64,000 bases of DNA from Mobula hypostoma. Its lineage: Eukaryota. The stretch covers positions 43,712,001 through 43,776,000 of the forward strand of contig NC_086108.1 in assembly GCF_963921235.1 (NCBI RefSeq), written 5' to 3'. Below, piece by piece: positions 1-17,800 of this stretch. Numbering within the stretch: position 1 is the first letter of the stretch; each line of letters opens with the position of its first letter. Below the pieces are notes generated by a model that saw nothing but the letters and a program-made list of their open reading frames with translations, did not search any database and was not told where the DNA came from. Made by a program: the position numbers and the translations under genes.

Positions 1-880
1 CATGTTCACTCTGTGAAAGACTGATCTTGTGTCTGTGATGGTGACTGTCGATTCAGGTACGCTGAAGACTGTCAGGGTGGGTGGTGACATACTCATTCAG
101 TTCTGTTCAAATCATGCATAGCATGTGGTAAGCTTATCAGAAAGGGATGAGTGATTCTGTCTGACTTTGCTTTGTAACCTTGTTATAGTTTGTAATGGTA
201 TGGTTAGACTGAGACTTGATTTTGCATTGGTATTGTCTCTTGGCATCTTTGCTAGCTTTATGGGGGTCAGACCTTGATTTCTTATGAAGGTTAGAGTCAC
301 CTGATTTGAATACTGTGGACCTAGACTTCAGAAGTCAAGTCTTGATCTACAGGTTCATCCATGGTTTCCAGTTTGGAAGCACCCAGATTGTCCAAATTGG
401 TACACAGTTGTCAAAATACTTGTCGATGATAGTAGTGACATGCTCATTTAGGCTGGTAGCTGAGTCTTTGAACACGGGCCAGTTTATTGGCACAAAGTAT
501 TCATTTAGAATCTGATCTGTTTCCTCAGGCTAGCACTGTGTGACTTTATATTCTGAATTCTCCCATTTCAGCAGAGTGTAGGAACACAGTCTGGTGGTCT
601 GCTTCACTAATGTGGGGATGAGGGATGGTTCAGTAAGCATCTTTCATGGTTGTATATGATTGGTTCAGGGTATTTGGGCCCTTGAATATTCCAAGTTGGG
701 TGAGCAAGAGCTTGCCAGAACCTTCATGTCTGTGTATCATGAGGAGTTGATTAAGAAGTCCTCTCCACCTCCTTTTTTGCCCAAGGATACAGTCTATCTG
801 GGGAATTGAGAAGCCCTCGGGTTGAATGATAGTATCAAATGAAGTGTGTGTAAGGCACATCTCAGTGAGTCAGCACACAA
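1..880 (-). mobile_element. Decayed non-LTR retrotransposon (Rex1/Babar- or L2-like) APE endonuclease region
   Basis: Minus ORF 630-860 begins CLTHT..TIIQPEGFSI..D, resembling the LCFTETWL..IQPEGFSIHRMDR segment of fish Rex1/L2-type endonucleases; frames are broken and boundaries approximate. Confidence 0.4.
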
Positions 881-2048
881 CAGATCCTCGTTTAATTATT
901 GAATGGCAGCAAATATAAATCTTGACACCCATGCCTAGTTTAAATAAAGTAAAGCAAAAACAAATCTCTTGAAAGCTTTGTAAAATGAATTTTGATAAAC
1001 CCGGTACTTCTTGAAAATTAAAAATATGCAATTCTGTGACTCTTCATGACCTCTAAGAACTTTAAGTATTTTACTTCCAAAAATACTTTTGATATATAAT
1101 GTTGTAATTGTTGAAGGCAATTTGCATTCAACAAGGGCTCTCAAAGAACATAAGAGGCATTAAGGTTCTTTGATAATTAAAGAAAAATATTAGCATTGTT
1201 CTTTTAAATACTGTCTTTAGCTGTTTATATCCTCTTAAAAGAGGTTGTGGTATTGTTTTAATGTCCAAGTTTGAGGTGATTCTTTAGTATTAGACTGGGT
1301 TGGCTTGAGCCTAAAATCATCTGAGTAAAAATATGAAAAGCTGAGTAGAAGTGATAACCAAAATCAACGAAAACCTTTCTGCTTTAAAAGGAGTGATTTT
1401 CAAGGCCTTTGGACAACTAAAATATCTTGTATCAGTAAGGAACTTTTAAACCGTAGTTGCTGTTGCAACCCGATTAGCCCTTGTTGACTGCTTCCACCTG
1501 AACTCTTTTGGATTTGACATTCATTACTTGAGAATTCTGTTCTCATTCATTTAATATTAATATTGTGTGATAAACAAACCATCTGATAATCAAATTACCA
1601 GTTAAGATGGTCCCTCACAAAGCCTGTGGGAGCTTATTCCTTTCCTGTTATTTCACTTGTCCACAAAATGCTTGGTGGCTATGAGAAGTTAGGAGAATTA
1701 CCGTTGATTCCTAGTTATGGAGGATAATGGAGGGGAATGCCTCCATGAATAAGACAAAATCACTACTTATTTTTAACTAATAGACATATATATACTTAAA
1801 TATGTATATTAAGTTTTTTCACTATTTAGTTAACATGTATTTGATTGTGCTGCTGCTGTAAAGTTAACAAATCTCACAACATATGCCAGTGATATTAAAT
1901 CTTATACTGAAATAGTTTCGAATTAAATGATACAGCTGTTTCTTAACATGGGTAGCTGTGGAAGGAAGAGGATGTTATAGAATTGGCAACATACATCAAA
2001 GTTGCTGGTGAACGCAGCAGGCCAGGCAGCATCTATAGGAAGAAGCGC

Positions 2049-2084
2049 AGTCGACGTTTCAGGCCGAGACCCTTCGTCAGGACT
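2049..2084 (-). ncRNA. Minimal type I hammerhead ribozyme motif, antisense arm of the PLE
   Basis: Exact reverse complement of 3377-3412: AGTC-CTGACGA-AGGGTCTCGGCCT-GAAA-CG-TC-GACT. Confidence 0.7.
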
Positions 2085-2377
2085 AACTGAAGGAAGAGTG
2101 AGTAAGGGATTTGAAAGCTGGAGGGGGAGGGGGAGATGCAAAATGATAGGAGAAGACAGGAGGGGGAGGGATGGAGCCGAGAGCTGGACAGGTGATAGGC
2201 AGAAGGGGATACGAGAGGATCATGGGACAGGAGGTCCGGGAAGAAAGACGGGGGGGGGGGGTGACCCAGAGGATGGGCAAGAGGTATATTCAGAGGGACA
2301 GAAGGAGAAAAAGGAGAGTGAGAGAAAGAATGTGTGCATAAAAGAGTAACAGATGGGGTACGAGGGGGAGGTGGGGC

Positions 2378-2704
2378 CTAGCGGAAGTTAGAGAAGTCAA
2401 TGTTCATGCCATCAGGTTGGAGGCTACCCAGACGGAATATAAGGTGTTGTTCCTCCAACCTGAGTGTGGCTTCATCTTTACAGTAGAGGAGGCCGTGGAT
2501 AGACATGTCAGAATGGGAATGGGATGTGGAATTAAAATGTGTGGCCACTGGGAGATCCTGCTTTCTCTGGCGGACAGAGCGTAGATGTTCAGCAAAGCGG
2601 TCTCCCAGTCTGCGTCGGGTCTCACCAATATATAAAAGGCCACATCGGGAGCACCGGACGCAGTATATCACCCCAGTCGACTCACAGGTGAAGTGATGCC
2701 TCAC
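2378..2704 (-). pseudogene. GIY-YIG endonuclease domain of a 5'-truncated Penelope-like ORF
   Basis: FTCESTGVIYCVRCSRCGLLYIGETRRRLGDRFAEH...HFN...LEEQHLIFRLGSLQPDGMN shows the VIY/YIG motifs with intervening CxxC typical of PLE endonucleases; no RT domain present. Confidence 0.85.
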
Positions 2705-3376
2705 CTGGAAGGACTGTTTGGGGCCCTGAATGGTGGTAAGGGAGGAAGTGTAAGGGCATGTGTAGCACTTGTTCCGCTTACACGGATAAGTGCCAGGAGG
2801 GAGATCAGTGGGGAGGGATGGGGGGGACGAATGGACAAGGGAGTTGTGTAGGGAGCGATCCCTGAGGAATGCAGAGAGAGGCGGGGAGGGAAAGATATGC
2901 TTAGTGGTGGGATCCCATTGGAGGTGGCGGAAGTTACGGAACTTCTCTTATTCTGACATGTCTATCCACGGCCTCCTCTACTGTAAAGATGAAGCCACAC
3001 TCAGGTTGGAGGAACAACACCTTATATTCCGTCTGGGTAGCCTCCAACCTGATGGCATGAACATTGACTTCTCTAACTTCCGCTAGGCCCCACCTCCCCC
3101 TCGTACCCCATCTGTTACTCTTTTATGCACACATTCTTTCTCTCACTCTCCTTTTTCTCCTTCTGTCCCTCTGAATATACCTCTTGCCCATCCTCTGGGT
3201 CACCCCCCCCCGTCTTTCTTCCCGGACCTCCTGTCCCATGATCCTCTCGTATCCCCTTCTGCCTATCACCTGTCCAGCTCTCGGCTCCATCCCTCCCCCT
3301 CCTGTCTTCTCCTATCATTTTGCATCTCCCCCTCCCCCTCCAGCTTTCAAATCCCTTACTCACTCTTCCTTCAGTT

Positions 3377-3412
3377 AGTCCTGACGAAGGGTCTCGGCCT
3401 GAAACGTCGACT
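3377..3412 (+). ncRNA. Minimal type I hammerhead ribozyme motif in PLE 3' repeat (sense to slc30a7)
   Basis: Stem I AGTC/GACT, core CUGACGA (3381-3387), stem II AGG/CCT, GAAA (3401-3404), palindromic ACGU in place of stem III, GUC cleavage triplet ending at 3408. Confidence 0.75.
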
Positions 3413-5519
3413 GCGCTTCTTCCTATAGATGCTGCCTGGCCTGCTGCGTTCACCAGCAACTTTGATGTATGTTGCTTGAATTTCCAGCATCTGCAGAATT
3501 CCTGTTGTTTGCGTTATAGAATTGGCCTTTCTTTTACTTTTGCTCAATTCTCTGGTCTTTTCATTTACAAATTATATGATATTATTAGAAAGCAACTTAA
3601 TTTCCTGCTCCTCAGAATTTTCTGCACCACCATTCTCACCTCTATTTAGTTGCTGCACAATTTCTGTTAAGCTTGTTGCTGAAATTTGGTTCCATTCTAC
3701 CACTAAGACCATTTCAAAAATATTTTGATTCAAGGCTTGATCTGAGTTATTAGTTTTGCTGTACTAAATACTCTGGACATTTAAGATTAATGTTGTTCTT
3801 CAAAAAAAAATTTCAAATAATTCTGCTCACTTAAATGCTTTTCTTAAAAGCAGTTCGCATTAATAATCAATTTACATGCATGTAATTGCTGGATTTATTT
3901 GTGTGAGTCAAATTGGATGATACATTTGATAATGTTTACTAATCTCTGGATGTGAAAGATTATTGTGGAGGAGGTGCATTATCCATCAACAGAAAAATTT
4001 GCTTCTTAAAGTTCTCTTGTGGGCTTTATTCTTGGGCAACTGTTCACTTTCTGCATCAGGAAAATGGTTATAGTTGTTGGTGGTCAGTCATCTTGACCCA
4101 TTGCCTGATTGGAGCAGCTCCTTGTGGCAGCATTCTTTCACTTCTTTATCACAGATTTTCCTTCCATCAGAATTGTGTATGCTCACTGATGATTGCACAG
4201 TCTGTGATATACAGCAAGTATTAGACAACACTTTGGCATGGATCGTAAGTGGAAGTAACATTTTTTTGCCACAGTAGTACCAGACAATTACTACCACCCT
4301 TCTGCCTCCCCCATTCCTCCAAGAGAAAGTCTTACACTTTGACAATCAATGGCATTACAGTGTATGATCTTTGATCACTATTGATCAGAAACAGCATTGG
4401 GTCAGCCACATAAGCATTATGTATACAAGAGCAGATCAGTTAGGGCATCTTGCAGAGATTGACTTGGTCCTCTCACATTAAAGATTTCTGAATGGGCAAT
4501 GAACCAGGAACACTACCTGAGTAGTTTTCCCTCTTTTTGCACTACTTAATTAATGTTTTTAGAAATATATATACTTAATTGTAATTTATTGTTTTTATTA
4601 TGTATTACAATGTACTGCTGCTGCAAAACAACACAACATGCCAGTGATATTAAACCTGATTCTGATAAAGCCTGCCTTCTGTGTACAAGTTTTAAAAAGT
4701 CAGTAGTCATTTGAAATGCACACCACTTGGCTGGATGAGTGCAGTTCCAACAACTCTTAACAAGCTAGTCACCATTTTAGATGCAGCAACCTGCTTGGTT
4801 AGTATTCATCATCCTTTTCAATTATTCCTTCCACCACAGTGGCTTCAGTGCAGACTGTCTACTAAGTGCACCTCAGTTCTTTGCCTAAATGACTCACAGC
4901 ACCTCCCAAGCTCAAACCCACTTTTGATTTATTGCCATTATACGTATCCATGTTATTACTCCATCTCCCCTTTTTTTTCCCTCTACGTTTTCTAAACGTT
5001 GTGTCTTGCAACCAGTTTCAGTAACCATTCCTTACTGGTTATTGCTAAGTCTGGTTCCTCCCCATGCATGATTGCCAGTAACTCTTATTTCACTATTAAC
5101 ACTATTTATACATGAACAGTTAAACTAATTTTTAATTGCACCTCCTCTATATAAGTCAGTCATTTTCTGACAATCTCTTCCATAACCCACCTGTTATGGT
5201 ACCATCATTATTCTACTTTTATGCTTCAACTATGATTGCCTCCTACTTGTTTATGCTTAGGCTGTTCAGATCTTGAAAACGTTAAACTTTTTTGTGCCTC
5301 TGTTTACCTTTACTGTAGGATGTTCATTCCATCCTATCAGTACAGATGTTTCCTCAGATTCCTGTTTGCTACACCTGCTCTTCAGCTGCATGTCCATTGT
5401 CCACCAACCCCTATACCAGTTTGCATGTCATTTGAGAAATTAAGTGTATTCTGTAATTACTGAATTCTTCCTCAATGCCAGATTTTTATTTTACCTCGCT
5501 TCCAATACCCAGTAACTCA

Positions 5520-5700
5520 GAGTGGGTTGTCCTTCGGTGCTGCAGTTTCCTCCCACAGTCCAAAGACTTACCAGGTAGGTTAACTGGTCATTGTAAATTG
5601 TCCTGTGATGGGGTTATGGTTAAATCAGGGTTATAGGGTGTTGTTGGATGGTGTGACTTGAAGGTCTGGTAAGGTCCATTCTGCGCTCTACCTTTTAAAT
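5520..5700 (+). mobile_element. V-SINE/HE1-like SINE fragment
   Basis: GGTGCTGCAGTTTCCTCCCACAGTCCAAAGAC...GGTCATTGTAAATTG resembles the V-SINE central domain; related copies near 5870-6060(-), 21795, 29670, 36170, 36520 and 53640. Confidence 0.5.
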
Positions 5701-6339
5701 AATTTTAAAAAAATTATATTTATCCTGCAGTGACATTGAGTCGCGATTAGATTGTACACTTGAACAGGGCCAGTTTGTGGGACATCCCTCTTAGTCTTTC
5801 ATAAATCCCTGGTATATGGTTCTTCAACAGTGATATTTGCCAAATTCAGTCATTCATTTGTTTATTTATTAGAGATATATCCTTCTGTCCCAAAGAGCTG
5901 CACCATCCAGCAACCCTCCTATTTAACAGGACAGCCTAATCACAGGACAATTTAAAATGACTCATTAACTGCTATGTCCTTGGACTGTTGGAGGAAACTG
6001 GAGTACCCAGAGAAAAGTCACACACTCACAAGGAAAATCCTACAAACAGATCTCCAGACTCTGTGCTTTCCACTGCAGTGTGACTGTTCTGAGCATCTGT
6101 GCAATAATTCCTCCTTGTCCCTTGTTGCAGTTTATTATCTTTCACTTCAGCTCCCTACTTCTTCAGTCAGAGAGATGTACAATGCAAATTTGGCATGGTA
6201 TGTTATTGTTTTCCAGACCTACTTTAAACCATTGTCTGATTTTAAACAAAACAAATGTTTTACTGTTGATGAAGCAGCACATTAGGGATTTGATTGGTTT
6301 GTGAGAAAGAATAAACTACAGAATAACAAGGATATCAGG

Positions 6340-6600
6340 AGAGGCAGAATGGAACAGTTATGAGGATGAATCTCTTTGGCCGGAGGCTAGTGAATGTGTG
6401 GAATTTATTGCCACAGACAGCTCTGGAGACCAATTCATTGAGTATATTTAAAGTGGAGGTTGATAGGTTCTTGATTAGTAAAGGTGTCAAAGGTTACGAG
6501 GAGAATGGGGTTGAGATTGTAAGTTGGCCTTGATGGAATGGCAAAGCTGTCTTAATGGGCCAAGTGGTCTAATTCTGCTGGTACGTCTTATACTCTATGG
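6340..6600 (+). mobile_element. CR1 LINE 3' end fragment
   Basis: GTGGAATTTATTGCCACAG...GAGGTTGATAGGTTCTTGATTAGTAAAGGTGTCAAAGGTTACG is the reverse complement of the CR1 3' region at 40260-40460. Confidence 0.6.
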
Positions 6601-6758
6601 GATTGTTCAATTTGGAGCCAGTATGGACTCAAAGTGCTTAATGCTGTCTCTTGGGTCATGTGTGTCAGCATTAAAAACATCAATAGTGCATTCAGTAGCA
6701 CCTCTCATGCAATTCAGACTCCAAACTTGGCTGATGGAGAGAAATTACAATTCTGTAA

Positions 6759-6956
<198 letters not shown>

Positions 6957-7329
6957 TAAGAACAGGAGTGCTTTGATATTTAATTATGTAGCTGTACACA
7001 AATATTAACACTTATGGGTTTTTTTAAAAGCTTCATTTGAAATAATTAGTTTTTAGGGCATTTCTTGCACTAGTGGAATAAACCATCTAAACAAGAGTTT
7101 GGTCTGATTCCCTTGGAAGGGTTTAAGTTCTTCCCCCTTAATCACCACAAGCTCAAGGGTAAACTTTTTTCTTTATTTCTGTTGTAGGTATCACAGCTCC
7201 ATTTCAACATCAACTGTCGGAACTCTTTCATAACTCAGTGCTAGAACATTGCTCATTTAATCTTGATAAGTTCCCTCCAGCCTAAAATGATGTAATACTG
7301 ATTTCAATTTTCATAGAACTTAAGAGAAC

Positions 7330-8200
7330 TCAGTTATTATTGTGTTTATGGCTGAGGGTAATATATTTGCATAGTTAGAGAACTGGTTAATAGACAGAAA
7401 ATAGAACAAATGGGTTATTTTCTGATTGGCAAACTAAAGATAGTGTTTACCACAAGGAACACATCTCGTATTGCTTACATCTATATTGATGACCAAGGAG
7501 TTGGTGTGAATTATCTAAAATCTGATTATGTAGCTGGGTGAGTAATAAAATGTGTGGACAGTGTTAAAAAGGCCTCATAAGGGTTTTAGATTGTTAACTT
7601 AGTGGCAAAGTAAAAAGCATATGGGATATGGTGTGAAAACTGTAAAGATACCCAATTAGGCAGGGAAATAAATAGAAAATCAGAACTCCAGGAAGACCCG
7701 GGTATCTTTTTATGTGAATTTCAGAAAGATGATGTGGGGGGATGGGGATGGTGTACAGCAACCAATTATTAGAGGAGCCGACAGTCTCCTTCCTTCAGTA
7801 ATGGTGATCTGGAATTTTAGAGCAAGAGAACTACAGCCAAATTTGTGTTTATTTTGGAAAAAAAAATGTAATGGCTATTATATCTTGTCCAAGAGGGTTA
7901 CACTTAAAGTCACTAGACTCTATCTAAATTCCTCAAGTTTGAAGGATGATCTGGTCTGTTAGTTAGAAGCTTGTTAGATGTTTCTCCTGCATGACTTTTC
8001 TAAGGTTATCCCTAGTTCCTGAGTAAAAGCGGTGTCATTTAGAACTGAGTTATGGAGAAATTATTTTAAGTAAGGTACTGGAATTCTCTGCCTCTTAGGG
8101 CTTGGGATGATGAACCATTGAGTATATTCCACATCAATGTTAGTTATCTGTGTATACTAAGAGGATCTAAGGGTATTGCTGGAAAGATGTATTTAAAGTA
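7330..8200 (+). mobile_element. Highly decayed CR1 LINE RT/3' region
   Basis: Scattered similarity to the CR1 RT 3' half seen at 39500-40250 and 41150-41470; no intact frame. Confidence 0.45.
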
Positions 8201-8272
8201 GATTAACAAAATAACAATTTTTTTAGCAAGTTCAAAGGGACAGGTTACCCTCTGCTGTAATATTCTTAAGTT

Positions 8273-11200
8273 ACATAGAACATAGAACAGTACAGCATAG
8301 TACAGGCCCTTCGGCCCACAGTGTTGTGCTGACCCTTAAACCCTGCCTCCCATATAACCCCCCACCTTAAATTCCTCTATATACCTGTCTAGTAGTCTCT
8401 TAAATTTCACTAGTGTATCTGCCTCCACCACTGACTCAGGCAGTGCATTCCATGCACCAACCACTCTCTGAGTAAAAAATCCTTCCTCTAATATCCCCCT
8501 TGAACTTCCCACCCCTTACCTTAAAGCCATGGCCTCTTGTATTGAGCAGTGGTGCCCTGGGGAAGAGGCGCTGGCTATCCACTCTATCCATTCCTCTTAT
8601 ATCTTGTATACCTCTATCATGTCTTCTCTCATCTGCCTTCTCTCCAAAGAGTAAAGCCCTAACTCCCTTAATCTCTGATCATAATGCATACTCTTTAAAC
8701 CATGCAGCATCCTGGTAAATCTCCTCTGTACCCTTTCCAGTGCTTCCAGATCCTTCCTATAGTGAGGCGACCAGAACTGGACACAGTGCTCCAAGTATGG
8801 CCTAACCTAACCAGAGTTTTATAGAGCTGCATCATTACTCCGCGACTCTAGCCCTCGACTTATGAAAGCTAACACTCCATAAGCTTTCTTAACTACCCTA
8901 TCTACCTATGAGGCAACTTTCAGGGATCTGTGGACACGTACCCCCAGATCTGTTTGCTCCTCCACACTTCCAGGTATCCTGCCATTTACTTTGTACTCTG
9001 CCTTGGAGTTTGTCCTTCCAAAGTGTACCACCTCACACTTCTCCAGGTTGAACTCCATCTGCCACTTCTCAGCCCACTTCTGCATCCTATCAATGTTTCT
9101 CTGCAATCTTTGACAATCCTCTACACTATCTACAACACCACCAACCTTTGTGTTGTCTGCAAATTTGCCAACCCACCCTTCTACCCCCACATCCAGGTCA
9201 TTAATAAAAATCATGAAAAGTAGAGGTCCCAGAACCAATCCTTGTGGGACACCACTAATCACAGTCCTCCAATCCAAATGTACTCACTCCACCACGACCC
9301 TCTGCTTCCTGCAGGCAAGCCAGTTCTGAATCCACCTGGCCAAGCTTCACTGGATCCCATCCCTTCTGACTTTCTGAATAAGCCTACCGTGTGGAACCTT
9401 GTCAAATGCCTTACTAAAATCCATGTAGCTCACATCCACTGCACTACCCTCATCTATATGCCTGGTCACCACCTCAAAGAACTCTATCAGGCTTGTTAGA
9501 CACGATCTGCCCTTCACAAAGCCATGCTGACTGTCCCTGATCAGACCATGATTCTCTAAGTGCCCATAGATCCTATCTCTAAGAATCTTTTCCAACAGCT
9601 TTCCCACCACCGATGTAAGGCTTACTGGTCTATAATTACCTGGACTATCCCTACTACCTTTTTTGAACAAGGGGACAACATTCGCCTCCCTCCAGTCTCC
9701 GGTACCATTCCTGTGGACAACGAGGACATAAAGATCCTAGCCAGAGGCTCAGCAATCTCTTCCCTCGCCTCGTGGAGCAGCCTGGGGAATATCCCGTCAG
9801 GCCCCGGGGACTTATCCGTCCTAATATATTTTAACAACTCCAACACCACCTCTCCCTTAATATCAACATGCTCCAGAACATCAACCTCACTCATATTGTC
9901 CTCACTGTCATCAAGTTCCCTCTCATTGGTGAATACCGAAGAGAAGTATTCATTGAGGACCTCGCTCACTTCCACAGCCTCCAGGCACATCTTCCCACCT
10001 TTATCTCTAATTGGTCCTATCTTCACTCCTGTCATCCTTTTGATCTTCACATAATTAAAGAATGCCTTGGGGTTTTCCTTTACCCTACTTGCCAAGGCCT
10101 TCTCATGCCCCCTTCTTGCTCTCCTCAGCCCCTTCTTAAGCTCCTTTCTTGCTACCCTATATTCCTCAATAGACCCATCTGATCCTTGCTTCCTAAACCT
10201 CATGTATGCTGCCTTCTTCCACCTGACTAGATTCTCCACCTCACTTGTCACCCTTGGTTCCTTCACCCTACCATTCTTTATCTTCCTCACCGGGACAAAT
10301 TTATCCCTAACATCCTGCAAGAGATCTCTAAGCATCGACCGCATGTCCATAGTACATTTCCCTGCAAAAATATCATCCCAATTCACACCCGCAAGTTCTT
10401 GCCTTATAGCCTCATGATTTGCCCTTCCCCAATTAAAAAATTTCCTGTCCTCTCTGATTCTATCCTTTTCCATGATAATGTTAAAGGCCAGGGAGTGGTA
10501 GTCACTGTCCCCCAGATGCTCACCCACTGAGAGATCTGTGACCTGACCCGGTTTGTTACCTAATACTAGATCTAGTATGGCATTCCACCTAGTCAGCCCG
10601 TCAACATACTGTGACAGGAATCCGTCCTGGACATGCTTAACAAACTCTGCCCCGTCTAAACCATTGGAACGAATCAGGTGCCAATCAATATTAGGGAAGT
10701 TAAAGTCACCCATGATAACAACCCTGTTATTTTTGCACTGTTCCCTAATCTGCCTCCCAATCTGCTCCTTGGTATCTCTGCTGCTACCAGGGGGCCTATA
10801 GAATACTCCCAATAGAGTAACAACTGCTCTCTCCCTGTTCCTGACTTCTACCCATACTGACTCAAAAGAGGATCTGGCTACATTACCCACCCTTTCTGTA
10901 GCTGTAATAGTATCCCTGACCAGTAATGCCACCCCCTCCTCCCCTCCCCCCCCTATCCCTTTTAAAGCACTGAAATCCAGGAATACTGAGAATCCATTCC
11001 TGCCCTGGTGCCAGTCAAGTCTCTGTACGGCCACTACATCATAATTCCATGTATGTATCCAAGCTCTCAGTTCATCACTTTTGTTCCTGATGCTTCTTGC
11101 ATTGAACTACACACACGTTAGCCCTTGTACCTTACTACCTTTACACCCTTTATTCTGTTTCTCTTTCCTCAAAGCCTCTTTATATGTTAGATCTGGCTTT

Positions 11201-12000
11201 ACTCCATGCACTATACTTGCAGTTCTCACATGACCTTTATTCTCCTCCACCTCACTATCTGCTCTAACACTCTGGTTCCCCTCCCCCTGCAAATCTAGTT
11301 TAAATTCCCCCCGAAGCAGCACTAGCAAACCTTCCCACAAGGATATTAGTCCCCCTCCTGTTCAGGTGCAACCCATCCCATTGGAACAGGTTCCATCTTC
11401 CCTGGAACAAGGCCCAATTGTCCAGAAACATGAAGCCCTCCCTCCTGCACCAACTCCTTAGCCACCATATTTAGCTGCATTATCTTCCTATTTCTAGCCT
11501 CACTAGCATGTGGCACAGGTAGCAATCCTGAGATTGCAACCCTGGAGGTCCTGTCCTTCAACTTTGCACCTAACTCCCTAAATTCTCTTTGCAGGACCTC
11601 CTCCTTCCTATCCATATCATTGGTCCCTACATGGACAACAACACCTGGCTGCTTGCCCTCCTTCTTGAGAATACTGAGAACTCGATCCGAGATATCGCGG
11701 ACCCTGGCTCCAGGGAGGCAACAGACCATCCGGGATTCTCGATCTCTTCCACAGAACCTCATATCTGTCCCCCTAACTATCGAATCCCCTGTCACTACTG
11801 CTCTCCTCTTTTCCCTCCTTCCCTTCTGAGCTGAGGTTCCAGTCTTGCTGCCAGAGACGCAACCACTGCAACTTGTCCCTGGTAGGTCGTCCCCACCAAC
11901 AGTATCCAAAACGGTATACTTATTATTGATGGGAACAGTCACAGGGGTGCTCTGCTCGTTCTGTCTATTCCCCTTCCCTCTCCTGTCAGTCACCCAGTTA
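8273..12000 (-). mobile_element. CR1 LINE, near full-length (ORF1 esterase-like domain, ORF2 APE+RT), frameshifted
   Basis: ORF 11346-11993 has GDSIVRG, CLPGA and VHVGTND (SGNH-like ORF1); 9622-11034 has YRPP, MGDFNFP, LDLVL; 9347-9670 has YRPVSLTS, QHGF, DFSKAFDKVPH; 8906-9277 has GVPQGLVLGP, FADNTK; short tandem tail (ACATAGA)n at 8273. Confidence 0.93.
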
Positions 12001-12497
12001 ATGGATACTTGTCCAGAATTGCAAATACCTTAACGTTACTGACAAGAGTTCCTTTATGTGAAATCAAGTCAGCTGAATACTGATAGCTTATGGGCATCAT
12101 AAGATGAACCATGAGAGAGACCCTTAAATTCTTTGAATTTTCTTACATCTTAACTTGGGTTTCATAGTAATGCCATTATTTATTTCTTTTGCTGATGTAA
12201 CGTATTCAGATCTTGGATCAAGAAATGCTTAAATTTTGAAGACAAAATGAATTATAAAGAGATTAAAATGCAACCTTACGTCTTTATTGTATTGAACATG
12301 ACAATGCAAATGTCTAGACGACATGGGGCAGGGAAAGTTACCAAATAGGGAATTCCCAGACCAGCATTTGGTTTGTCTTGATTATGCTATTATTTGTACC
12401 AACCTTCTTAACCAACTTTAGAAAAAATGTAACATTTCACACTCCTGGTCAAGAGGTACAAGGTGTTACACTGTGTGTATTTTGTTTCCTTTGGCAG

Positions 12498-12585: not shown

Positions 12586-14489
12586 GTTGGTTAGCGAAAA
12601 TATGGTTATGTTAGAGCTGCAGAATTTTGCTCTCAGTTGATTCCTTTTGGGCCTTGCAAGGGATAATTGGCAGTCAAATCTTAACTGTAATCAGAGGATA
12701 TTTCTAAAATTTTTTTGGTTTTATTTGCAATCTGCAATTCTTTGCATGTTGATCGTTCTTTTTGCCTAGATTTATGAAACAATGTTGCATTGTCATTCGC
12801 TATTACCTCTAAAGCAAGGGGTCTATGGACACAGGTTGGGAAACCCTGGTCTAAAGAGAGGATGGATTTTTAGGGGTGTACGTGACATAAAGATATAAAT
12901 TTGATTATATGGATTATGTCTAGACTTTTGGACTTGAGGGTTATTTTCAGACTTCAGCAGAAGACTATAAGCTGAAATTGTTGTCAACATTTCTGTTCAA
13001 GTGACTCAATAGCTTATGCAAGCGGTTGGATATATTCAATGATGGCAGTTTTGCACAAAATTATACTGTACATTAGAAACCTGGAATATGAGGCAGATAT
13101 TAACAGCACATACCTCTGCCACTTTGTAAAGAGTTTGAGATGTCCACCTTCTTGGTAGATGCCTCTGAATTTGCAATTATTTCTGTTTGTTCCAGTTCTT
13201 CTACCAACTCTCCTCCAGTAACTTTCTATTGCTAGTGTTTTCTGCACCTTTACTGCCTCAGCAAATCTTTCTTTTCAAGACCAGACTTTGATGGTAGGCA
13301 ATCATAGAGAGTTGGTTAATTATACTGTGTTCAGTGCTGTGAGAATAGTGTGCAGTAAAATATCGAGAGTCTTTACAAACCACTAATCCAATTGTTGTTG
13401 TTGGCAAATTTATGCCTTGCGTTATCTCCAGTAGTGTCTCCCATTTTCACTTCTACTTGCCCTATCCTGAGAACTTTGTATTTCTAATGAACTATCTGCT
13501 CCCTGTGATAGTTTTTTTTAAAAAACATCTCTTTATTGCTGTTACAGAATGAAAGGAAAACACATTAGATCATCCATAAGTTTGAAAGTACAACAAAGTT
13601 AAAGAAAAGGAAAAAAATAAAATGCATAAGAAATAAAAAAAACACAAAAAAGCAAACACTCCGCCATTTTAAAAAAAAGGCAGTCAATTCAGTTCGTTAC
13701 TTTCATCATCCTGAATATTGTTCTCCAGAAACTTGTAGAAAATGTCCCAAATTTCCTGAAATTTGCCAAGTTTGTTTTTTGTGATGTAGCTTATCTTTTC
13801 CAGCGCAAGATAAGAAGTCATTCCTTTCAGCCATTGTGAGAGTCCACCGGTTGTGGATTTCTTCCATGAATAGGCATGCAGTGTTTGGCTTCTAAAAACA
13901 AATACTAAGCAGAGACCTTACATTTTTGGAGGTTACAAAATCCTTTGGATAAATATTCAGAATACATAATTTAGGATCAAGGGGCACCGTTTTTCCAAGT
14001 GAGTGTTCACTGATTGAGTATGAACTAAGGAACAAGCTTCTGACAACTTTTTTTTCTGACAGATTCTCATGCAAATCATTTCTCCATGCTTGTATGTTGT
14101 TTGATGACTCTTTGCATTTATTTGCAAACAAATTGTATAATACAGACACACGTCCCCTAGCTTCAGATAATTGCAGAGTGATGTCTTCTAGAGTAGATAA
14201 AGGAGGGAGCTTCAATCTGTAACCTTGCCTGGACATAATAAAACTTCGCAACTGAAGGTATTTTAAAAAAAAGAGTTTTGTTGGAATTCCATATGTGGCC
14301 TTGAGTTCTTCAGGCATAAATGTATTGCCATTATAAAGATCAGGCACCTTAGCTATGCTTCGGGTCGACCAAGTTTTAAAAGCGGGGTCTGCTCTGCCGG
14401 GCCGGAAGCTATCATTACCAAAGATAGGAGTAATCTGGGATAACTGTGATGTCTTCCAAATACGCAAGAGCATCATACCAAACCATTAC

Positions 14490-14824
14490 GGTATTTTTAT
14501 ACCCCTTGCCCCTCTGTCCCTCTGACTATACCCCTTGCCCATCCTCTGGGTTCCCCCCCCACCGTCTTTCTCCCCGGACCTCCTGTCCCATGATCCTCTC
14601 ATATCCCCTTTGCCAATCACCTGTCCAGCTGTTGGCTCCATCCCTTCCCCTCCTGTCTTCTCCTATCATTTTGGATCTCCCCCTCCCCCTCCCACTTTCA
14701 AATCTCTTACTAACTCTTCCTTCAGTTAGTCCTGACGAAGGGTCTCGGCCCGAAACGTCGACTGTACCTCTTCCTAGAGATGCTGCCTGGCCTGTTGCGT
14801 TCACCAGCAACTTTGATGTGTGTT
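14490..14824 (+). mobile_element. PLE 3' repeat fragment nested in L1 ORF2
   Basis: Highly similar to 3160-3473; interrupts the minus-strand L1 frame; ends at TTTGATGTGTGTT without the tail. Confidence 0.85.
14728..14763 (+). ncRNA. Minimal hammerhead ribozyme motif (sense to slc30a7, intron 4)
   Basis: AGTC-CTGACGA-A-GGG-TCTCGG-CCC-GAAA-CG-TC-GACT; all core nucleotides present, stem II GGG/CCC. Confidence 0.75.
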
Positions 14825-17800
14825 ACCTGTATTTTTTAAGAAAGGATCTTTAGTTTGTTTGACCATTTTTTTTCCCTTATCTGCTAAGTACATATATAGT
14901 TCTAGAGGGATATTGATCGACTGGGATTCCATTGCGACCCAAGTAGGGGAGTGATCCTTAACAAAATAAAACATTCCTGTTCTAGTCTGGGCCACCCAGA
15001 AATACCATATAAGATTTGGTAGCTGTTAGCCGCCTCTATCATACAGCAGATATAACAGGCAAAGCCTGAGTCTTGGACCTCTATTATTCCAGATAAAATT
15101 AGAAAAAAATTTTCTTTAATAAATAAAAGAAAGATGATGGATGAGAAAGTGGGATAGATTGGAAAAGGTACAGGAACTTTGGTAAAATTGACATTTTTAG
15201 AATGTTTATGCGTCCAATCAAAGATATGGGCAATTTAGTCCATCTGTTTATAAGTTGAATAACTGAATCTGTGAGAGGGTTGTAATTAGTTGGGATAATT
15301 TTATCAATAGGAGGAGTAATTTTAACACCCAAATAAGTAAAACCCTGTTCTGACACTGTAAATGGAGTTTGAAGTGGGGGATTGAGTCTCTCATCTTTAT
15401 CCACGAATAATATTGCAGATTTGTTGTTTATTTTATAGCCTGCAAAAGTACCAAAAGTACTTATCAGGTCAATTAAGGCAGGTAATGTTTGTTTCAAGTC
15501 GGAGCAAAACAAAATTACGTCATCTGCGTACAGGGCTATGCGATGTTCTATGTCTCCTATAGTTATTCCTGCTATGTTAGCCTGTTTTCGTTAGCAAGTG
15601 GCTCAATGGCCAGGATAAACAGGAGGGGAGATGGGGGACAGCCCTGTCTTGTTCCCCGTTGGAGTTTTAAAGGTGACGAAAAGAGCCCATTAGTTAAAAT
15701 TTCAGCCTGTGGGTTAGAATAAAGAAGTCGTATCCACCTTAGAAATTTTCCCCTATACCAAAGCTTTCTAAAACTTTAAATAGGTATTGCCATTCCACTC
15801 TGTCAAAGGCTTTCTTGGTATCCAGTGACAGAATAATGCTATTAGAGCTTCCAGCCTTTTCATAAAGTATATTAAACACTCTTCAAATGTTGTGGAAGCC
15901 CTGCCTTCCCTTAACAAATTCATTTTCGTCAGGGTGGACCATTTTTGGCAAGAGTGGCTCCAGCCTCCTAGCTAATACCTTACAGAGAATTTTGAGATCA
16001 TTGTTCAGAAGTGAGATTGGCCTATAAGATCCACATATGGACGGTGTTTTTCCAGGTTTTAACAGCAGTGTAATTACTGCCATATTAAGTGGGGGGGGGG
16101 TGGCGGTGGAGGAATGACTCCAGTGTCAAATGACTCCTGATACATATAAAGCAGACGTGGTATTAATTTAGTCTTAAAGATTTTATATATTTCAATTGGA
16201 ATTCCATCGGGCCCAGGAGTTTTTCCTCCCTTCATGTTATAGCTTCAGACAATTCTTTAGCCTCTAAGTTAAACTCCAGCGAGGTCAAGTACGTTTCATC
16301 CAGGGCTGTAATTCGAACAAGTCGAGAAATTCCTTTTGTATTTGTGGAGCTGAATCTGAATATTCTGAGTTATACAGATTTTGGTAAAATCTCAAAAAAA
16401 TATTGTTTATTTCTTTTGGGTCAGCAGTTGTCACCCCCTCATCTGATTGTATCGAGTTTATTGCCCTTTCTGTTTGATGCACCAGGCCAAGAGTTTACTT
16501 GCCTTTTCACCCTGCTCAATATAGGATTGCTTCGGTCTCATCAAACTTTTTGTTGCCTTATTAATGGACAATACATTATATTTGGCTCTCGGTTGGTTAA
16601 GTTCTGCAAATAGCTGCTGAGAGGGATTTTGAAATATTTCAGATTCAGCCTCTTATTATTCTTTCAAGCTGTTCTATTTCAAATCTAAAAGATTTATGTT
16701 TAAAGCTGGTAAAGCTAATCATCTGACCTCTTAGAAAGGCTTTAATGGCTTCCCACCATATAGTAGCAGATGTCTGCTCGGTATTATTTCCAAAGTAGCA
16801 GTCTATCTGTTCTCCAATAAACTCTATAAATTCGGAATTCCCCAGCCCAGTCATTTGAAGCCGCCACCTTGGGGAGTAATGTAAAGCGTTAGGCAGGTTC
16901 AAAATAAATGAAACTGGGGCGTGATCTGAAATTATTATGCTATCGTACCAGCAGCTTATAATTGTGGATTTTAAAGCAGCTGAAAGTAAGTAATAATCAA
17001 TTCTGGAAAAGGTCTGGCAAGTGCTAGAATAGCAGGAAAAAGTTAGTTTATCCGGGTGCTTACTTCTCCACACATCAACTAAATTAAAGTCTTTAGTGTA
17101 TTGCAATAACTCTTGTCTGATGGTGAGAGGTATCTATCCCATTAGATCTGTCTAGTTCAGGTTGGAGTGCACAATTAAAATTGCCACCTACAATAAGATG
17201 GCCTGGCAGAGCAGCTACTGATAAAAACAGATGTCTGAAAAAAGCTGGGTTGTCATCATTTGTCCCATAACACATTGACCAAATTAAACCTGATTGAGAA
17301 AATTTCACATTGAATAATAAGGTATCTGCCGGATTGGTCTTCAGTAACATTAACAAGGTGGAAAGGCAGCAACTTATGTATAAGGGTAATTACCCCCGTG
17401 AGTGTAAGCTCAAAGAAGCTGGAAAAACCAGTCCCGGCCATCTCCTCCTTACTCTAACTATATCTTCGTGGGTTAAATGGGTCTCCTCCAGAAAAAACGA
17501 TTTTAGCTTTTAACTGCCTTATCCTACTCATGACTTGCTTTAACTTGACAAGTTTATTTAATCCTCTTACATTCCAAGAGGTAAACTGAAGTTCGCAGGG
17601 CAGGGGCTATTAGTTATAATTTCAATCATGTTGAGATGAATTGATTTAGAATGACTGCTATCTGAGATTACAACGTAACAAAAAAGATGAGTAAAACCCA
17701 GTAAATAGTAACTAGTTCATTGTAAACATAACTAAGTGTACTTCCCAAACTGATATACACCCACCCACCCCACGATGAACACCTCCTGACAGCCCCGAAA

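Follow-up and report, generated by a model that had tools for sequence, protein, structure and literature searches.

A minimal hammerhead motif, probably silent in its intron, in a young and abundant Penelope-like element of Mobula hypostoma with 5' ends gathered at stem I

Introduction

Does a minimal hammerhead motif lodged in an intron of the ray Mobula hypostoma cut the RNA of its host gene, and does cleavage mark the copies of the transposon that carries it? The window analyzed here (64,000 nucleotides of contig NC_086108.1, assembly GCF_963921235.1) contains such a motif at positions 3377–3412, which an earlier note had described as a potentially active self-cleaving RNA of a Penelope-like element (PLE). 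Our overall reading, held at a probability of about 0.7, is that the motif lies in the repeat of a young, abundant, Neptune-like PLE and is likely silent at this site, that the RNA of the active element would start at stem I, and that short insertion copies, called stubs below, would derive from uncut RNA. The sequence, the PLE context, target-site duplications (TSDs), copy number, end distributions and host gene were observed; folds were predicted. Positions within the family are offsets from C3 of the core (0, window 3381): stem I starts at −4 (3377), C17 lies at +27 (3408), and +28 is the first base 3' of the cut.

Sequence and Structure of the Hammerhead Motif

3377..3412, + strand: minimal type I hammerhead (min-HHR), from sequence, descriptor and the architecture in Fig. 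S3 of PMC4209133
3377–3380/3409–3412, + strand: stem I, plus the pair U3376·G3413 (sequence)
3381–3387, + strand: CUGACGA box, followed by an extra A at 3388 (sequence)
3389–3392/3397–3400, + strand: stem II with a CUCG loop (sequence and fold)
3401–3404, + strand: GAAA; 3404–3407: palindromic ACGU; 3408: C17 (sequence)

The letters given in the earlier note were borne out on the + strand, with both core boxes and the GUC triplet present and C3408, its cleavage position, corresponding to C17. Its assignment to the PLE min-HHRs also held, as the CUGANGA and GAAA boxes and a UH cleavage triplet were found, and stem III is the ACGU palindrome it described (3404–3407), with a zero-length loop 3 and a need for a partner. 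The note had suggested descriptor and Infernal-type searches. A descriptor covering the whole min-HHR (CUGANGA, stem II, GAAA, zero-loop stem III, UH and a 4-bp stem I) matched three sites in the 64-kb window (2049, 3377 and 14728) against none in 100 shuffles, and 26 sites per 1.0 Mb of evenly spaced genome stretches, or roughly 90,000 genome-wide. The loose core pattern by itself gave 18 matches in the window against 7.3 expected. Rfam hammerhead models gave no match to the motif at E ≤ 10, and 3377–3412 falls outside the canonical Rfam hammerhead class with a cis-closing stem III.

The motif resembles published PLE min-HHRs in its CUGANGA box followed by an extra nucleotide, the G10.1 that opens stem II, the loopless GAAA-C-GU-C segment and a stem I of 4–5 bp; the published copies are likewise mostly solo, with inverted pairs nearby (PMC4209133). 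It differs in its short stem II (4 bp) and in the G·U at 10.1–11.1 of the 3377–3412 subfamily. In the portion of that min-HHR alignment compared, the CGUC ending of the motif recurs in the Acropora Neptune, Takifugu, Petromyzon and Xenopus rows, and a cartilaginous fish row is absent.

The stem II register proposed earlier (A-U/G-C/G-C) proved to be one base off; an extra A followed by G-Y/G-C/G-C/U-G with a CUCG loop is better supported. In published min-HHRs, one base between 9 and 10.1 is left unpaired and the G10.1-C11.1 pair is conserved (PMC4209133); this register (A3388 unpaired, 4-bp GGGU/GCCY, loop CUCG) was predicted at −7.0 kcal/mol against −5.6 for the earlier one. Across 237 aligned arms, the closing pair of the earlier register was A·C in 79 and A-U in 91, and that of the published register (10.1–11.1) was G-C in 74 and G·U in 83. 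We counted A3388 as unpaired because the base facing it is C in 79 copies and T in 91, so that pairing is inconsistent. At 10.1–11.1 the 3377–3412 copy has G·U where the conserved pair is G-C, which the 14728 copy retains. Position +19 sits within a CpG (TG in 99 aligned arms, CA in 46, CG in 43), so its U is likely a fixed deamination. The changes seen in the stems were one-sided (C-G/U·G at pair 5 of stem I, U·G/U-A in stem II), with no two-sided compensatory change among the 237 aligned arms.

The monomer is predicted to fold into a closed rod in which G5–G8 pair with C15.2–C17 (P ≥ 0.98) and the core is sequestered. The ACGU/ACGU duplex is predicted at only −1.7 kcal/mol. Folding z-scores of the motif (−0.37 to −1.15) did not exceed those of shuffles, so fold stability is no evidence for it. 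The earlier note had asked for conservation of CUGANGA/GAAA above background, and this was found in part: the majority-base frequency was 0.91 at non-CpG core positions and 0.88 in the stems against 0.63 in the linker (+33..+45), but the core did not exceed the downstream pLTR block (0.88–0.92 at +46..+78).

Architecture, Clade and Abundance of the Element

1974..1985, + strand: left target-site duplication of 12 bp (14 at most when microhomology is counted)
1986..2949, − strand: inverted 5'-truncated arm, tailless (sequence comparison)
2378..2947, − strand: C-terminal ORF piece with a C-x4-C-x2-C linker and a GIY-YIG endonuclease (Pfam PF01541, E 7.2e-5)
2950..3512, + strand: direct arm with ORF end, 3' UTR, pLTR and tail (sequence comparison)
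3475..3511, + strand: tail (37 nt) between two preferred 3' ends (+91..97 and +122..140)
3513..3524, + strand: right target-site duplication

With an inverted arm carrying the linker and GIY-YIG domain, a tailed direct arm and a TSD, the insertion at 1986–3512 has the standard arrangement of an EN+ PLE. Segment 1986–2514(−) pairs with 2950–3475(+) as a 526-bp near-perfect inverted repeat. At locus L042, a 3,508-bp unit in partial tandem encodes both RT and endonuclease, but contains stops and a frameshift. The family has the single ORF of an EN+ PLE (RVT_1 E 8.6e-6; GIY-YIG E 2.8e-4 and 7.2e-5), and the pLTR seen through the partial tandem, the inverted 5'-truncated arm and the one-sided tail were all present. 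In frame, the first shared Met comes about 166 nt past C3.

The C-x4-C-x2-C linker between RT and EN suggests that the family is likely of Neptune type; Nematis has the same linker in the available part of Craig 2021 (PMC8557442). The available parts of that paper and of Arkhipova 2013 (PMC3846280) describe Neptune-clade EN+ PLEs with the same RT, CX2-5CxxC linker and C-terminal GIY-YIG, and with the same partial tandems, inverted 5'-truncated copy, one-sided tail of 30–40 bp and TSD.

An exact 26-base anchor occurred 59,438 + 29,921 = 89,359 times in the 3.48-Gb assembly; about 90,000 copies compares with 4,000–9,000 reported for coelacanth and Xenopus. The 161 nt around the motif were 100% identical in 40/40 scored genomic copies, which argues that the subfamily of 3377–3412 is young. 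In L362/L363 (G000:C21:74009984-74016571), two ORF starts lie 3,497 bp apart in a multi-unit tandem, which could be a source of read-through RNA with several hammerheads.

Other Copies and Elements in the Window

2049..2084, − strand: hammerhead copy identical to 3377–3412, antisense to the host gene
14728..14763, + strand: core-intact copy with canonical G10.1-C11.1, in the 5'-truncated arm 14510–14834
27342..27562, no strand assigned: head-to-head stub pair with a 16-bp TSD (1 mismatch)

The three copies previously listed as core-intact, at 2049(−), 3377(+) and 14728(+), are real, and a fourth at 27469–27500(+) had been overlooked. The five listed as decayed are true family members with broken cores. 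The 14728–14763(+) copy differs from 3377–3412 by one base, T>C at 11.1 (+19). Both arms of the stub pair at 27342–27562 begin inside CUGACGA; its + arm (27469–27500) has an intact core and a broken or absent stem I. An Rfam mir-3926 match at 27435–27505 was rejected, as it is merely the palindrome and scored below gathering. At 36913–37061 lies another head-to-head stub pair, old and decayed, from a related PLE subfamily; it has the same architecture in an older wave.

Several other elements were seen. A fragmented LINE at 8906–12029(−), which we take to be CR1-like, has ORFs of APE-like and RT-like type, with an ORF1-like frame upstream of them. Fragments at 13892–17133(−) and 33689–34622 presumably belong to L1/Tx1-type ORF2, and the PLE copy 14510–14834 is nested in the first. 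At 37520–37784, nested inverted repeats form a MITE-like fold-back that adjoins a decayed transposase-like frame (37060–37437).

Host Gene and Activity of the Intronic Copy

6842..6955, + strand: ZnT7/SLC30A7 exon closing the intron of the copy (30/35 residues identical to PDB 8j7t, E 6.8e-15)

The host gene is ZnT7/SLC30A7. Another of its exons, in L032, precedes the window by about 12.5 kb (E 3.8e-9), and the only PDB match of both exons was human zinc transporter 7. The + strand exons (L032, 6842–6955 and one from 12498) join in frame, and the intron of the copy spans roughly 19 kb. Since the L032 exon and exon 6842–6955 flank the copy on the + strand, the earlier placement in the sense orientation within an intron of a housekeeping gene stands.

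The accompanying proposal of a potentially active RNA in this intron is disfavoured by the paired antisense arm, the closed monomer (P ≥ 0.98), G10.1·U11.1 and an at most weak cleavage footprint (see below). In the predicted pre-mRNA fold, 1986–2514 is transcribed first and pairs with 2950–3475 over 526 bp, covering the whole motif. For the copy to be an active ribozyme cutting SLC30A7 pre-mRNA, its partner would be the sense copy at 14728 or element RNAs in trans. Its core is intact and sense to SLC30A7, and that transcript includes the second intact sense copy 11 kb further downstream; yet the motif would be buried in the 526-bp duplex, whose antisense arm is transcribed earlier, the monomer fold is predicted to be closed and carries G·U at 10.1–11.1, sense arms are not depleted in the window (8 sense, 7 antisense to the host gene), and published PLE min-HHRs are inactive as monomers and weakly active as dimers (PMC4209133). 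Given the duplex, the self-paired monomer core and this published weakness, we consider activity in the SLC30A7 intron very unlikely. The copy at 3377–3412 is likely an inert passenger, since its inverted twin 2049–2084(−) would pair with the motif in the host RNA. Contigs of four presumed-RNA sequencing runs cover the repeat and carry no ends, strand or intron-specific signal.

Insertion Ends of the Family

The 3' ends of the family were bimodal, at about +91..97 and +122..140, in agreement with the two internal start sites that bound the tail of the anole element (PMC11167929). At C17, 38 3' ends were counted genome-wide against 43 at the control +24; there was no enrichment, and many of these ends are small deletions. 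An early lead, the inverted arm of L003 that ends at C17, was dropped since two bases are shared with its TSD and a genome-wide excess is absent.

The 5' junctions were counted genome-wide as three mismatches followed by a match, and numbered 289 at −14, 2,238 at −4, 229 at +17, 523 at +28 and 312 at +33, where the +33 count used a shifted anchor and the −14, −4 and +17 counts required five extra matched bases. By eye, about a third of the −14 rows resembled 1-nt deletions. Junctions at the cut site (+28) were 1.7–2.3 times the controls, which were not cleaned as the +28 loci were. When 30 loci at +28 were inspected by eye, 16 showed microhomology or a GAC-GAC deletion, 7 showed point changes, duplications or complex events, and 7 were clean. 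A small cut-derived class may exist among these junctions. Overall, the cleavage footprint in the insertion ends of the family is at most weak and nowhere clear, and natural insertion ends indicate that cut linear RNA is rarely used as template.

Two recurrent structures were noted around the core. L092, L107 and L109 (about 1500) share a deletion that removes the hammerhead core, bounded by direct GAC repeats (+2..+4 and +28..+30). Three unlinked head-to-head insertions, L085, L086 and L087 (about 1500), share one junction, an arm to −3, an extra A and an arm from +28, which reflects either a recurrent mechanism or a copied chimera.

The 5' ends gather at stem I instead. In a sample of 1.16 Mb (100 evenly spaced stretches, 10 flanking ones and the window), 21/51 young arms (≥90% identity) started at −7..+12 and 0/51 at +24..+35; the excess at −7..+12 over its flanks had p 7e-8, for an interval picked after the data were seen. 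Measurement of 98 of the first 100 listed non-C arms placed 72 starts at −12..+8, 3 at +28 and 9 upstream of −12. One of the remaining two starts at −5 and the other is long. Only 3/29 C-class arms (29 arms, 30 loci) started at −12..+8. The weighted estimate is that about 28,000 arms (31%) start within −12..+8. A −4 spike among old copies (<90% identity) was not taken as evidence of truncation, since the sequence upstream of stem I is divergent in old subfamilies, and spikes near −164 are likely poly-C alignment artefacts.

Why 5' Ends Gather at Stem I

3375..3381, + strand: YYANWYY initiator-like site whose A (3377) is the first base of stem I; also a pyrimidine tract and YAG (sequence)

YYANWYY is, as we take it, the initiator consensus, a degenerate one. 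An A at −4 in this context was present in both young and old subfamilies. PLE promoters are located in the pLTR, according to the part of the literature available. The pile-up is ragged (−12..+8), without a sharp edge, and G stood at −5 in about 27 of 100 listed −4 junctions, so there is no cap-G signature.

The 90 short arms comprised 61 head-to-head pairs, 27 solo and 2 direct. A TSD of at least 11 bp was found for 11/27 solo arms, and 10 of these start at −9..−1 with an 11–15-bp TSD within a few bases. As the TSD abuts the stub start this closely, the 10 solo stubs are primary insertions without an upstream exon. This bears on a further explanation, that the boundary is a 3' splice site, with a pyrimidine tract and YAG abutting stem I, and that stubs come from spliced RNA as in Drosophila virilis Penelope. 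The intron of that element does end at helix I (PMC4209133), and tract and YAG are retained in young and old subfamilies; against it, a common upstream exon is lacking, TSDs or an inverted arm adjoin the stub start, and the ends are graded, not set at −6 or −2. We regard splicing as a highly improbable origin of the stubs. Immediately 5' of stem I, 3354–3378 holds a branch-point-like sequence, a pyrimidine tract and CAG/TAG. We assume that this stretch fits the branch-point/acceptor consensus and could be used as a cryptic acceptor where a copy is intronic and in sense.

The ends might also mark a structural barrier, with the enzyme halting or folding back at a rod hairpin in the cDNA (−4..+31) or at a protein bound there. 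The predicted hairpin starts exactly at −4, 61/90 short arms lie in head-to-head pairs, and 4/30 loci contain a stem I fold-back junction. An RNA hairpin, however, would be expected to halt the enzyme at +31, the hairpin's 3' foot, and counts there are low; a barrier should act on every pass, whereas second passes stop in 3/33 cases against about 31–41% of first passes. A barrier thus appears doubtful to us, if less so than splicing.

How Long Copies and Stubs May Arise

Those second passes come from 39 loci with an ORF start. In 33 of them the copy extends as far as the upstream motif; 3 of these end at −12..+8, 1 at +19 and none at +28, and 29 continue, which speaks against a simple model of an RNA start at stem I. 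Because 29/33 ORF-start copies run past the upstream motif, long copies require templates of more than one unit. One route would be that the ribozyme cuts both repeats and the unit is ligated into a circle, with long copies made from circles and stubs from uncut linear RNA. Circles have no ends, so no C17 footprint would be expected. The circle model was put forward in PMC4209133, and it agrees with the 29/33 copies that extend upstream, with L041/L042, which contain one unit plus about 1.1 kb, and with the retention of core and stems between subfamilies. The same copies are, however, explained by tandem read-through or strand transfer; in the available part of PMC11167929, insertion in vitro is normal for anole ribozyme mutants, and zero reads end at the cut site; and the single circle-like copy found here (L367) is joined at +83/+384, away from the ribozyme. 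We consider ligated circles unlikely as the source of long copies, with a better chance than the barrier. L367:1356-1750 itself is TSD-flanked and runs about 1.3 times through a 300-nt segment (+83..+384); an identical microhomology junction, not GT-AG, occurs in it twice.

A chimera, L388:1317-2548, consists of a TSD, a piece from −4 to about +1116, A9, a stub from −4 to +93 and a TSD, its pieces starting at −4/−2. It looks like run-off at the 5' end of one RNA followed by a jump to the 3' end of a prematurely polyadenylated RNA.

The anole element Poseidon PAc (Anolis carolinensis) is among the closest known systems. In the available part of Frangieh 2024 (PMC11167929), its ribozyme cuts only with protein and uncut RNA is the main template; two internal start sites bound the tail, with the hammerhead upstream of both, and both target strands are extended on uncut RNA, which we count as likenesses to the ray family. 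The PAc ORF starts inside the hammerhead, unlike the ray family with its first shared Met about 166 nt past C3, and the C-x4-C-x2-C linker of the ray family is a further difference. A 5'-end pile-up at stem I was not found described for PAc in that part of the paper.

In our preferred reading, RNA of an active element would start at stem I (window 3377), with the motif as its first 36 bases. The motif would rest in the predicted closed hairpin and, by analogy with the anole element, may be cut after C17 only when two copies pair via ACGU, aided by the element protein. Reverse transcription would begin internally, 93 or 130 nt downstream of C3. Priming on the repeat at the 5' end of the RNA would lead to run-off at stem I and stubs of 100–140 nt, putatively from uncut RNA. 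Long copies would need a more-than-unit template, which could come from strand transfer from one repeat to another, from read-through of tandems or from a ligated circle. More tentatively, and at somewhat less than even odds, we suggest that the 135-nt repeat acts like a retroviral R region, with stem I as the transcription start. The ~28,000 stubs would be failed strong-stop cDNAs, and successful ones would transfer to the 3' repeat or use the ribozyme circle to yield more-than-unit copies; cleavage would strip off the first 32 nt together with the cap, a switch triggered by protein that would turn mRNA over to template use or to decay.

Discussion

The min-HHR motif class has been known since 2014 and the dimer idea is published; the 3377–3412 copy occupies an ordinary, probably silent site. 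Literature searches, subscription papers and supplements aside, found no paper that treats shark or ray PLE hammerheads or a pile-up of 5' ends at stem I. In the available part of a preprint on vertebrate non-LTR retrozymes (bioRxiv 10.64898/2026.07.22.740005), these share PLE-derived type I hammerheads with the ray family, and 1/9 dimers of the Xenopus retrozyme hammerheads cleaved in vitro. Retrozymes are head-to-tail tandem repeats, whereas ray copies are solo or head-to-head and stem from an autonomous element; with only 2/90 short arms direct, the family does not count among the non-LTR retrozymes.

The part worth following is the end map of the family, since the start of the copied RNA can be read from about 90,000 natural insertion ends. 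The near-intact young consensus suits the assay already built for the anole element, and the cap-removal, circle and strand-transfer models are directly testable with this ray family.
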